Shown here in pieces: positions 16,101 through 17,415 of a DNA stretch of 64,000 nucleotides. The stretch spans positions 8,709 through 72,708 of the forward strand of contig JAPPQC010000053.1 in assembly GCA_028817225.1 (NCBI GenBank), written 5' to 3'. The first letter of the stretch is position 1. Every line of letters starts with the position of its first letter. The notes under the pieces were generated by a model. That model was not told the DNA's origin, searched no databases, and was given only the letters and a program-made list of their open reading frames with translations. The stretch is from Gammaproteobacteria bacterium. Its GTDB lineage: Bacteria; Pseudomonadota; Gammaproteobacteria; Poriferisulfidales; Oxydemutatoraceae. A program made the position numbers and the translations under genes.

Positions 16101-16153
16101 CCGTTCAGAAACCTTTGGCAGTCTTGCTTTTCACAGGTCCGGTGTGGTATATT
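16101..16153 (+). promoter_or_regulatory. Conserved upstream element plus putative sigma70-type promoter of NHLP-family gene 1
   Basis: The 27-mer CCGTTCAGAAACCTTTGGCAGTCTTGC (16101-16127) matches 23/27 with 20078-20104. TTGCTT (16124-16129), an 18-nt spacer, then TGgTATATT (extended -10, 16145-16153). Confidence 0.35.
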
Positions 16154-16241: not shown

Positions 16242-16817
16242 ATGACAATCAAAAACGCAACCAAAAATGCAACGGTAGCAGCAGTGCGTGACAGAGGGCT
16301 GGGCGTCGGCGTGCACACCCATCCTCAGTTGCCGCCGTGCAACGAAATGATGGCGGTGCTGATAGGTTCCGGCCTGACCTCGCCTGAAGTGCCCGTTTCC
16401 AGCAAAAACTCATTGAAGGATTTTCTCGGCAGATACGAGGGCGTGGATATCGTCTATAAGCAGAACACTGCGGATGAAGTCAATATCGCTTTGCCCTGTT
16501 TCCCGGAGTTTGACAAATACCATGAAGAGTCGGCGCTAAGCGATGAAGAGCTGGCAATGGTTTCCGGCGGAGAGATTGTGGCTCTGCTGACGCTTTTCTT
16601 CATGACCATCGGAGCCATAGTCGCCGCAAAAATCGGGTTGGGCATGGTCGTCAAGTCGGTGGCGATTGGCATCGGTATTGGTGTGTCGGTCGCGGTGGCT
16701 GCGGGCGCCGCATTGGGCATTGCAGGCGTCACGGCGGCAGTCGGAGTCGGCATCGCCGCCGGTGCCGGCGCTTTCGACCCCGGCGCCGGCCCCGTCAATG
16801 TCGTCCTCGGCAGTTGA
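16242..16817 (+). CDS. NHLP-type (nitrile-hydratase-like) leader / Gly-Gly precursor with an 81-aa Gly-Ala-Val-Ile-rich core (family copy 1)
   Basis: Leader: ...GVDIVYKQNTADEVNIALPCFPEF...ALSDEELAMVSGG. Core from 16572: [89 protein letters not shown] upstream. Paralogs at 20168, 31630 and 63829. Confidence 0.8.
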   Translation: MTIKNATKNATVAAVRDRGLGVGVHTHPQLPPCNEMMAVLIGSGLTSPEVPVSSKNSLKDFLGRYEGVDIVYKQNTADEVNIALPCFPEFDKYHEESALSDEELAMVSGGEIVALLTLFFMTIGAIVAAKIGLGMVVKSVAIGIGIGVSVAVAAGAALGIAGVTAAVGVGIAAGAGAFDPGAGPVNVVLGS

Positions 16818-16837
16818 TTTTGCGGCATAAGCCGCAG

Positions 16838-16866
16838 CTGGCCGCCGCGCTGTCGCCGGCGGCCAG
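16838..16866 (+). terminator. Stem-loop downstream of NHLP gene 1 (between convergent genes)
   Basis: CTGGCCGCCG-N9-CGGCGGCCAG is a perfect 10-bp stem. A second small hairpin, TGCGGC-ATAA-GCCGCA, lies at 16821-16836. There is no clear U-tract. Confidence 0.4.
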
Positions 16867-16917
16867 CCCCCCCTGCATCAGCACATCATAAGCACACCCG
16901 ATAGGCGCACCGGCGCA

Positions 16918-17415
16918 TCACCACCGCGCCTTGTCCCACATCTGCGGATTGGCCCAGAAGCGGCTGTTGAGCCAGTCGGGCGCGTCCTTGTAGTCGAAGA
17001 TATCAAAGTAATAAAGGCGCCCGCCCGCGTCGCCGTCTTCACCGGCGTAGGCGCGCATCAGGCGCAGCCCGAGCGCGCGCAGAAAGTTGTCGTCCCGCGC
17101 CGCCGCCTCGCCGGGACGGTAGAGATAAACCCGTTCGCAGTCCTGGTCGCGCAGGCGTGAAATCAGGTGTTCAAACGGCGTGTTCGCCATGTCCGCCGCC
17201 GCGCAAACGACGATGCCGACGGCAAACCGGCGCCGCAAACGCGGCGTTTCGCAATAGTTGGCGACATCGCCGCTGAGCGTCTCGCGGCCCGGCGCGGCGC
17301 CTGCGGCGAGGTGTTCGGCCAGGTCGCCGCGCGGACTCAGCAGCAGCGCGCCGCCGTCGCCGCCGGGCGCACCGGCGAGGATTCTCCGCAAGTCTTCGCG
17401 CACGCGGCGTTGCAT
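16918..17415 (-). CDS. Hypothetical protein (165 aa) downstream of rnd
   Basis: ORF in an operon-like position after rnd, with a Trp-rich C-terminal motif YYFDIFDYKDAPDWLNSRFWANPQMWDKARW. Family not recognised. Confidence 0.6.
   Translation of the reverse strand: MQRRVREDLRRILAGAPGGDGGALLLSPRGDLAEHLAAGAAPGRETLSGDVANYCETPRLRRRFAVGIVVCAAADMANTPFEHLISRLRDQDCERVYLYRPGEAAARDDNFLRALGLRLMRAYAGEDGDAGGRLYYFDIFDYKDAPDWLNSRFWANPQMWDKARW

Follow-up and report, generated by a model that had tools for sequence, protein, structure and literature searches.

How should one read a gene that joins a leader peptide of the nitrile hydratase type to a stretch of almost nothing but small and hydrophobic residues, and that stands alone among housekeeping genes? 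The question is raised by a segment of 64,000 nucleotides from contig JAPPQC010000053.1 of a Gammaproteobacterium (the window, in what follows), in which an earlier note had seen, at positions 16242-16817 of the plus strand, an orphan precursor with a leader peptide resembling nitrile hydratase (NHLP), a double glycine (GG) and a Gly/Ala/Val/Ile core, and had offered a proteusin-like peptide and a glycine-zipper toxin as candidate identities. The best-supported model, to which we assign a probability of about one half, is that the product is an unmodified glycine-zipper peptide that would be exported by a transporter encoded in trans, cleaved after the GG and then act on membranes or aggregate.

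The gene and its product

The gene (paralog 1) starts with an ATG, with GAGGA 7 nt upstream, and encodes 191 amino acids up to a stop codon at 16815-16817; a hidden Markov model (HMM) of the family leader recognizes the product with 89 bits (E=4.6e-26). Residues 1-110 (nt 16242-16571) constitute a polar leader, and residues 111-191 (nt 16572-16814) an 81-residue core that is rich in Gly, Ala, Val, Ile and Leu and ends in the polar tail PVNVVLGS. Recognizable leader motifs lie within residues 34-110, namely NE at 34-35, QNTADEVNIALP at 74-85, D91 and LSDEELAMVSGG at 99-110, the last closing the leader with the double glycine at residues 109-110. Open reading frame (ORF), translation and family alignment thus agree with the architecture given in the earlier note, as does the translation with the core composition and tail described there. 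With 58% G+C and a G+C content of 0.67 at third codon positions the gene differs from its neighbours (~0.8-0.9 at third positions) and from the window as a whole (65.8% G+C). Immediately downstream, at 16821..16867 on the plus strand, two G+C-rich hairpins follow, which resemble a terminator without U tract (fold -39.8 kcal/mol, z=-4.7 versus shuffles).

The leader as a divergent branch of the NHLP clan

Is the leader indeed of the NHLP type? Searches with paralog 1 by itself gave nothing significant in Pfam, PHROGs or the PDB; the NHLP leader 8tb1_A took the top rank in the latter but with E=0.52. The relationship becomes apparent at the profile level. A profile of 69 family leaders searched against PDB sequences finds 8tb1_A at E=7.8e-10, the nitrile hydratase alpha chain 1v29_A at E=1.4e-6 and the NHLP leader 9cjx_A at E=5e-5, and the alignment to these chains spans the beta-hairpin motif up to the GG, which supports the earlier assignment of an NHLP-like leader ending in a double glycine. 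A comparison with the NHLP model TIGR03793, for which the curated cut-off is 50.9 bits, came out partly in favor of this assignment: paralog 1 yields no match, and two further intact copies in the window, paralogs 2 and 3, yield 29.7 bits (E=4.4e-7) and 14.0 bits, the former being significant and all three remaining below the cut-off. Across the family, 44 of the 79 diverse members match the same model with E<0.01 (lowest value 2.1e-12), and 4 match the nitrile hydratase alpha model. The leader family is therefore a divergent NHLP-clan branch that curated thresholds miss, which fits with the fact that no family member carries a name in any source searched.

G110 does not vary among the 79 diverse members and conservation of G109 is 90% or more, and the motif preceding the predicted cleavage site reads L(-12) S/T(-11) D/E(-10..-8) L(-7) I/V(-4) x G G, usually followed by E-[IVL]-[IVF]. 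This motif agrees with the LSxxELxxIxGG logo that is common to NHLP and Nif11 leaders and to the class II bacteriocin leaders of TIGR01847 (PMC2887384). Paralog 2 passes the bacteriocin-type signal model TIGR01847 (17.0 bits, cut-off 15.7) and, marginally, the class IIb bacteriocin family TIGR03949 (21.9 bits, cut-off 21.5); for paralogs 1 and 3 no match to the signal model was reported despite the same motif. Cleavage after the GG by a C39 peptidase domain would be the natural expectation for such a leader. NHLP occurrence correlates best with a three-gene export cluster consisting of an ABC transporter with a peptidase domain (PCAT), a second ABC protein and an HlyD-like protein, and the precursors can be encoded far from these partners (PMC2887384).

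The core as a glycine zipper

The cores of the family comprise 56-99 residues, with 22% Ala, 21% Gly, 14% Val, 10% Ile, 13% Ser plus Thr, 1-2% Asn and 0.6% Cys. Would such a sequence rather form a beta-helix with a period of two residues, as in proteusins, or packed helices? When periodicity was tested against 500 within-sequence shuffles, small residues (G/A/S) showed an excess at lag 4 (z=14.6). For Gly alone the excess lay at lags 4, 6 and 8 (z=6.9, 5.9 and 4.2), with a depletion at lags 1 and 3 and a value close to expectation at lag 2 (z=0.8, or 2.0 in the close subfamily). This signal is that of the small-xxx-small glycine zipper typical of packed helices, as far as periodicity can tell, and a family period of 4 instead of 2 favors a helical zipper of the class II microcin or Cdz kind over a proteusin beta-helix. 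The strict period-2 runs pointed out earlier are real locally in paralog 1 and do not extend to the family. Similarly, absence of Cys is true of the paralog 1 core, whereas 25 of the 79 family cores contain this residue. Of the two identities proposed in the earlier note the glycine-zipper toxin is therefore the better supported, through the lag-4 periodicity, and the proteusin is left without support, given the period of 4 and a window that encodes no epimerase. The core length had been considered unusual in comparison with polytheonamide; 81 residues are, however, ordinary beside class II microcins and Cdz proteins. The cores of the microcins MccV and MccE492 have a length similar to the ~80-97 residues of the cores here.

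In the close subfamily the C-terminal part of the core is a conserved block, G[VI]G[IV]AAG.GAF, followed by a polar linker and [VI][NS][VI]G[LH]AS. The polar tails include PVNVVLGS, NVNVGLAS and PVSVGHAS, and in distant members the tail is rich in Lys, for example GNKK, DGSKK or KKKK. Structure prediction had been suggested as a means to distinguish the beta-helix from the helical zipper and did not do so, as AlphaFold2 yielded no usable core model: the mean predicted local distance difference test score (pLDDT) was 36 with an alignment of 8 sequences and 46.6 with one of 28 sequences, in which the leader reached 56-75, with helices and a beta-hairpin predicted, and the core stayed below 35. 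A Foldseek search of the PDB with the 28-sequence model returned nothing at E<0.001.

Size and selection of the family

How widespread are such genes? Word-indexed homology searches returned 7-18 matches, since low-complexity words swamp the candidates, and for this reason 1.84 billion representatives of clusters (at 50% identity) were searched exhaustively with a profile. This gave 207 clusters with E<=1e-3, of which 66 have E<=1e-10 and 19 have E<=1e-30, and nearly all 207 matches have the layout of leader, GG, hydrophobic core and polar tail. Ratios of nonsynonymous to synonymous substitution rates (dN/dS) range from 0.2 to 0.8 and are below 1 in both leader and core, with the core evolving faster than the leader (0.76 versus 0.36 between the window and locus L013, 0.52 versus 0.34 between L008 and L009). 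Family size and dN/dS below 1 together are far beyond chance, and the genes are under purifying selection. That they are pseudogenes or a non-coding artefact could be rejected on account of these ratios, of strong ribosome-binding sites and of conservation across metagenome-assembled genomes. Locus contexts came from a genome scan with 5 loci and a metagenome scan in which the distant subgroup is represented by one 2.9-kb contig, so that distant members are thinly sampled.

Among named carriers of the family, 'uncultured Candidatus Porisulfidus sp.' (OY843752.1) and 'Gammaproteobacteria bacterium PNGst_S_binSS2' (locus L013) come closest. Porisulfidus is presumably a sponge-associated sulfur oxidizer, with support from the titles of papers bearing the name. 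The window sequence itself recurs in the metagenome assemblies ERZ23499687 'SHAF22-1', there within a scaffold of 87 kb, and JGI 3300009900 and in several others, and the PNGst_S_binSS2 proteins encoded by yebC, ruvC, ruvA, ruvB and tolQ are 90-96% identical in amino acid sequence to those of the window.

A shared upstream element

Do the scattered copies have anything in common besides their coding sequences? A conserved element of ~19-25 nt, GTTCAGAAACCTTTGGCAG, is found upstream of every intact copy, in either orientation. Upstream of paralog 1 it lies at 16103..16127 on the plus strand (GTTCAGAAACCTTTGGCAGTCTTGC), and its 3' end overlaps a -35-like TTGCTT (16124-16129), which is followed by a -10-like TATATT at 16148-16153. 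The element of paralog 2 is also in direct orientation (20080..20104, plus strand, GCTCAGAAACCTTTGGCACTGTTGA), with TTGACG at 20101-20106 and, after 18 nt, TAATCT at 20125-20130. That of paralog 3 is inverted and located ~205 nt upstream of the ATG (31401..31425, minus strand, GTTCAACGACTTGTGGCAGTGCCAT). The string GTTCAGAAACCTTTGGCA has just two matches in the window, one at 16103, 139 nt upstream of paralog 1, and one with a single mismatch at 20080, 88 nt upstream of paralog 2, at a chance expectation of 0.05; a more diverged copy, GTTCAACGACTTGTGGCAG, lies inverted on the minus strand at 31407-31425 upstream of paralog 3. A degenerate pattern that covers all three sites has no other match in the 64 kb (expected 0.01), a statistic that is partly circular because the pattern was built from the same three instances. 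The independent evidence for the putative element is its recurrence across genomes: it precedes all three tandem copies of Ca. Porisulfidus (L001), the copies in L010 and L014, two in L012 and an extra copy in L013, and the inverted form is conserved upstream of copies in L009, L013 and L021.

In the direct cases the block closes at its 3' end with the -35-like TTG(A/C), and ~18 nt further on comes a TAnAAT-like hexamer in a fixed alignment column. From this spacing we infer a promoter, with the element as a candidate factor-binding site centered near -48. Occurrence in both orientations also argues for a factor-binding site and not for a core promoter. A sigma-54 promoter (TGGCA-N-TTGC) was considered and rejected, as GG and GC stand 3 nt too close together and several copies have GT in place of the GG, and extracytoplasmic function (ECF) sigma factor, Pho-box and lux-box readings, judged by eye, gave no consistent fit.

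The element is not confined to glycine-zipper genes. In Ca. Porisulfidus it also precedes two duplicated genes (L011 1560-2018 and 2652-3143, OY843752.1) that encode a canonical NHLP leader (…HRNDEKCWHVTLP…GG) and a polar 58-aa core (ASMLSSEERLRYYTEVQAEGAEYITIADWKERERNQPARAIMGHIMNLIPSSFPFLKP). Moreover, locus L019 (205-1784, VSKX01044633.1) contains three tandem leaders of the family type with GG in front of three unrelated, mostly polar cores. As the same leader and element occur with varied cores, in L019 as far as the leaders are concerned, the two behave as a transferable tag and a control module, and the distribution of the element points to a single regulon that may comprise the dispersed copies together with further cargoes of NHLP leaders.

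How would the peptide leave the cell, and what would it do?

In the favored model each gene is a self-contained transcription unit composed of the shared element, a sigma-70-like promoter and the coding sequence, which in paralogs 1 and 3 has a G+C-rich hairpin after the stop codon. The NHLP-clan leader of 95-110 residues would keep the very hydrophobic cargo soluble and would be recognized by a C39-domain PCAT whose gene lies elsewhere in the genome. The partners of this transporter would be a membrane-fusion protein and a TolC-like channel, and all of them would be provided in trans, as for prochlorosin-type and many NHLP and Nif11 precursors. Cleavage after the GG would free a peptide of 79-97 residues, with 21% Gly, 21% Ala, 17% Val and 10% Ile and usually starting with Glu or Ala-Phe-Glu, that may insert into membranes or self-associate on the cell surface. 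In the dense sponge microbiome it could serve, without modification, as an antagonist of the class II microcin or Cdz kind. The attachment of the same leader to the unrelated polar cores of L011 and L019 is as expected of a transferable export tag.

Several observations weigh against this model. No PCAT, HlyD-like protein or immunity candidate is encoded in the 64-kb window, in the 9 kb upstream or in the 10 kb downstream of it, nor within ~10 kb of the other family loci examined, which are those of Porisulfidus, of the PNG bin and of three other metagenomic contigs, one of them with a nine-paralog array. The NHLM-type export cluster (TIGR03794, TIGR03796, TIGR03797) is likewise absent from the window and all flanks examined, and no window ORF of at least 250 aa has ABC ATPase motifs, so that the earlier statement that neither exporter nor maturase is present in the 64 kb was confirmed by ORF, motif and model scans. 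An exporter seen in no region examined lowers confidence in export in trans, and a toxin without an adjacent immunity gene is atypical. In addition, no single window protein attains the curated TIGR03793 cut-off, and the failure of AlphaFold2 to model the core leaves periodicity as the sole ground for a helix.

What else could the genes encode? If the leader is taken at its most familiar meaning, the product would be a proteusin-like modified peptide on which a radical SAM epimerase acting in trans, perhaps together with methyltransferases, would generate an alternating D/L beta-helical pore like polytheonamide. The NHLP-clan leader as in PoyA, a sponge-symbiont host in whose kind of microbiome NHLP and proteusin clusters are common (PMC9426513) and the local G-x-G-x runs of paralog 1 would be in line with such a product. 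However, the only radical SAM proteins of the window are LipA, QueE and HemW (397, 349 and 336 bits, all above equivalog cut-offs), no maturase was found in the window or near the other family loci examined, the cores of 56-99 residues follow period 4 and are poor in modifiable residues (Asn 1-2%, Ser plus Thr 13%), and we regard this alternative as very improbable. The missing exporter could also be taken at face value, in which case the protein would stay uncleaved in the membrane, with a cytoplasmic nitrile hydratase-like domain, two to four Gly/Ala-rich transmembrane helices and a GG of structural importance. Core segments long enough to span a membrane, purifying selection on both halves and a location among housekeeping genes, which for some copies is syntenic (L008/L009 and window/L013), are compatible with this proposal. 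It does not account for the conservation of the whole 12-residue double-glycine leader logo beyond the GG, for fusion of the same leader to soluble polar cores, for matches of the family to bacteriocin signal models or for copies that are gained, lost, truncated and tandemly amplified, and is thus rather improbable.

The function of an exported and cleaved peptide is a separate matter. Such a peptide might not be a toxin at all but form surface aggregates or an amyloid-like matrix, or have a part in adhesion or in the interaction with the host within the sponge mesohyl. Glycine zippers are known to drive assembly of the amyloid type, and the surface aggregates of CdzC resist SDS (PMC5380434); no copy has an adjacent immunity gene, the family is expanded in sponge symbionts, and the truncated copy at the end of the window is adjoined by a giant Calx-beta/PKD protein that is possibly an adhesin. 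Direct evidence for such a role was not found, the nearest characterized analogues by architecture (class II microcins, Cdz proteins and class IIb bacteriocins) are antagonistic, and immunity genes could reside with the exporter; we consider a non-toxic role unlikely, though it would share export and cleavage with the favored model. That model, a trans-exported and unmodified glycine-zipper peptide, could also be part of something larger. It is conceivable that in sponge-symbiont Gammaproteobacteria small mobile operator-promoter-gene cassettes make up a regulon that spans the genome and comprises NHLP-tagged cargoes served by one distant exporter, with NHLP being a general chaperone and secretion tag for large unmodified glycine-zipper pore-formers and soluble cargoes alike. 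This would be a system for secretion and for antagonism or host interaction, with an organization unlike that of any described bacteriocin locus; a smaller share of the credence given to this scenario falls to epimerization in trans into giant proteusin-like beta-helices. As a whole the scenario is a tentative one and rather doubtful.

Comparison with known systems

How does the family relate to peptides that are already characterized? With the NHLP precursors of peptides made on ribosomes and modified after translation (RiPPs; PMC2887384) it shares a leader of ~90-110 residues homologous to nitrile hydratase alpha and NHLP leaders, conservation that stops at the Gly-Gly, several paralogs per genome and precursors that can be far from their partners. 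It differs from them in scoring below the curated cut-off, in having no modification enzyme or NHLM-type transporter nearby, and in its cores, which are hydrophobic glycine zippers of 56-99 residues, poor in Cys, Ser and Thr, as compared to an average of ~26 residues, and which in the close subfamily have a conserved and not a hypervariable C-terminus. The proteusin PoyA likewise has an NHLP-clan leader, a sponge-symbiont origin and a hydrophobic core thought to act on membranes, whereas in this family epimerase and methyltransferase are absent from the regions examined, the period is 4, Asn is scarce and the core is 1.7-2 times longer. Prochlorosin-type precursors with Nif11 leaders resemble the family in having many scattered leader-core paralogs, for which a single remote system presumably provides processing and export; their leaders belong to another clan and their cores are short, rich in Cys, Ser and Thr and modified by LanM, which nothing indicates here.

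CdzC and CdzD of Caulobacter (PMC5380434) also have a leader that ends in G[G/A/S], GxxxG zippers, a mature part that consists to ~75% of Gly and small hydrophobic residues, a short polar or charged C-terminal tail and no modification enzymes. Three of the four published features of Cdz-like proteins are present in the family, the leader end G[GAS], the glycine zippers and the polar or charged tail (PMC5380434); the fourth, a length of 60-151 residues, is exceeded by the 175-192 residues of the window proteins because of their long leader, and the predicted mature 79-97 residues would fit. Cdz proteins, in contrast, are 84-86 residues long, with a short leader, and their genes adjoin type I secretion and immunity genes, whereas the proteins described here have an NHLP-type leader and no cdzAB-like or immunity genes next to them; the likeness to Cdz is one of architecture. 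Similarly, the class II microcins MccV, MccH47 and MccE492 are unmodified Gly/Ala-rich peptides of less than 10 kDa with a double-glycine signal, which is cleaved by the PCAT during type I export (PMC12219008, PMC9746304). Microcin signals are ~15-19 residues long and the genes cluster with those for PCAT, membrane-fusion protein and immunity; the NHLP-type leader of this family, with 95-110 residues, is five to six times longer, and its genes are orphaned.

Thus, a link of GG-ending NHLP leaders to PCAT export (PMC2887384), Gly-rich double-glycine bacteriocins such as microcins, Cdz proteins and class IIb bacteriocins, and dispersed precursors processed in trans, such as prochlorosins, are all known already. 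New are the combination of an NHLP-clan leader with a long glycine-zipper cargo in a family that is sizeable and entirely without annotation, the expansion of this family in sponge-symbiont Gammaproteobacteria, where single-gene units stand between housekeeping genes, and a conserved cis element common to glycine-zipper genes and other NHLP cargoes; a literature search found no paper that links NHLP leaders with glycine-zipper cargo. If the favored model is true, NHLP leaders, now regarded as markers of heavily modified RiPPs, would also be export tags for large unmodified membrane-active peptides, in a family of ~200 clusters that is invisible to current annotation because it scores below curated cut-offs. 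It would provide a testable case of dispersed bacteriocin-like genes served in trans, in which the shared cis element should make regulator, exporter and regulon findable by simple genome-wide scans. Furthermore, it would point to a possible mechanism of competition or host interaction in uncultured sulfur-oxidizing sponge symbionts and to a pool of new candidate antimicrobial peptides. Should the proteins stay uncleaved in the membrane, the family would be only one of unannotated membrane proteins.

Further copies in and near the window

Three further paralogs had been listed in the earlier note, of which those at 20168 and 31630 are intact and the one at 63829 turned out to be a leaderless stub on the minus strand. 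Paralog 2 (20168..20695, plus strand) encodes 175 aa, with a leader of residues 1-96 ending in MTDEQLQKISGG and a core of 79 aa. Paralog 3 (31630..32190, plus strand) encodes 186 aa with a core of 97 aa when read from the ATG at 31630, the likely start (AGGAGG 8 nt before it), in an ORF that itself opens at GTG 31612. The three intact window proteins are 33-48% identical in pairwise comparison, paralogs 2 and 3 being 33% and 48% identical to paralog 1, and the family-leader HMM finds exactly these three ORFs in a six-frame translation of the window (E=1e-23 to 1e-26). A 12-nt tandem repeat, GGGGCGTAGGCG, of ~3.5 copies occupies positions 19919-19961 and covers the 3' end of a major facilitator superfamily (MFS) transporter gene and the beginning of the spacer between this gene and paralog 2.

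The stub (63829..64000, minus strand) contains the last 56 codons of a family core (...GILTNVNICT*) and is cut by the window end. The contig ERZ27276931:k141_231216, which equals the window over the shared 1342 bases, continues beyond it, and there unrelated sequence lies 5' of 'LFISGLIAFALG' with the leader encoded in no frame. The absence of a leader in an otherwise identical contig indicates that the fourth copy is probably a 5'-truncated remnant, with the break almost precisely where leader and core meet; a full-length relative, P0026 (177 aa), was found in another source. A fifth, intact copy encoding 166 aa lies on the same contig as the window ~8.4 kb upstream of its start (L021 690-1190), where it adjoins lgt. 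Its product reads ...EELEQVVGG|EGALAIILLG...DVNISHAS, and ~120 nt before its start lies an inverted upstream element. A stretch of ~75 kb thus contains at least four intact copies together with one stub. In L015/L018 (11171-11770 and 11522 onwards, just past window position 64000) the stub is followed by a giant ORF, of more than 3700-4700 aa and cut by contig ends. In L018, the one copy with Pfam matches on record, these are faint or weak matches to Calx-beta, REJ and PKD-like domains, and the product is a possible large adhesin, for which no secretion genes were seen.

Gain, loss and amplification

Comparison with related genomes reveals considerable turnover. Paralog 3 has an ortholog in L013 that is 80% identical, with flanking ruvA and ruvB being 95-96% identical. 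In the same genome, PNGst_S_binSS2, an insert of 783 bp between yebC and ruvC (L013 5283-6065), absent from the window (junction ~30174/30183), carries the upstream element, a family gene and a terminator hairpin, with a direct repeat of 7 bp, GCGCGGC, at its borders. Ca. Porisulfidus has a tandem triplication of the family gene (L001 6917-10594), and its copies are not syntenic with those of the window. Each L001 unit includes the duplicated 3' 101 codons of a neighbouring hexapeptide-repeat (gamma-carbonic-anhydrase-like) gene. The hexapeptide-repeat proteins were considered as partners and rejected, as they are duplicated 3' fragments of one neighbour that arose by tandem segmental duplication. 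On the distant branch, nine tandem paralogs of 185-203 aa (L007 7440-13155, ERZ25073868 ctg76991) are located between an aldehyde dehydrogenase gene and ychF/pth, with rplY, prs and hemA among the flanking genes. The insert polymorphism, the tandem triplication and the truncated fourth copy imply that the units are evolutionarily mobile; with regard to the mechanism, microhomology-mediated deletion is as plausible as transposition.

Neighbouring genes

That the precursors are dispersed and sit alone among housekeeping genes, as claimed previously, is borne out by the annotation of the window. The immediate neighbours of the copies are glnB, a DUF6231 gene, rnd, the MFS gene, purN, ruvA and ruvB. 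The DUF6231 gene (16918-17415, minus strand) is found between paralog 1 and rnd in all four related contigs that span this position, and its window product has no match in NCBIfam or PHROGs. The genes of the window include the his operon, lipB/lipA, nth, mrp, dcd, glnB, the DUF6231 gene, rnd and the MFS transporter gene, furthermore purN/purM, hda, glycosyltransferase genes, yebC, ruvCAB, tolQRAB-cpoB and queE/queC, a YeeE-type sulfur transporter gene, an outer membrane protein gene, rplM, amtB/glnK, rph, rdgB, hemW and hemH, and a rhomboid protease gene, rpsU, gltD, hemE and aroK/aroB. The real ORFs of at least 600 aa encode MetG, a CopA-like multicopper oxidase, PriA, PBP1A and AspS.

Two neighbours were considered as candidate partners and set aside. 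An Opp/Yej-type ABC transporter beside the L008 and L009 copies has the architecture of an importer, with no peptidase domain reported, and represents one syntenic position. Between priA and rpsU there is a gene for a rhomboid-family intramembrane protease (55549-56319), which was weighed as another enzyme that might process Gly/Ala-rich transmembrane segments; nothing ties it specifically to the family. Near the start of the window, a DUF2779/RNase-H-like gene (955-2442) is flanked by direct repeats of ~150-300 bp that are 77-85% identical (307-767 and 2465-2828), and the repeat stretches also hold small ORFs of 29 and 67 aa. The arrangement has the look of a small-gene locus that either received an insertion or was duplicated.

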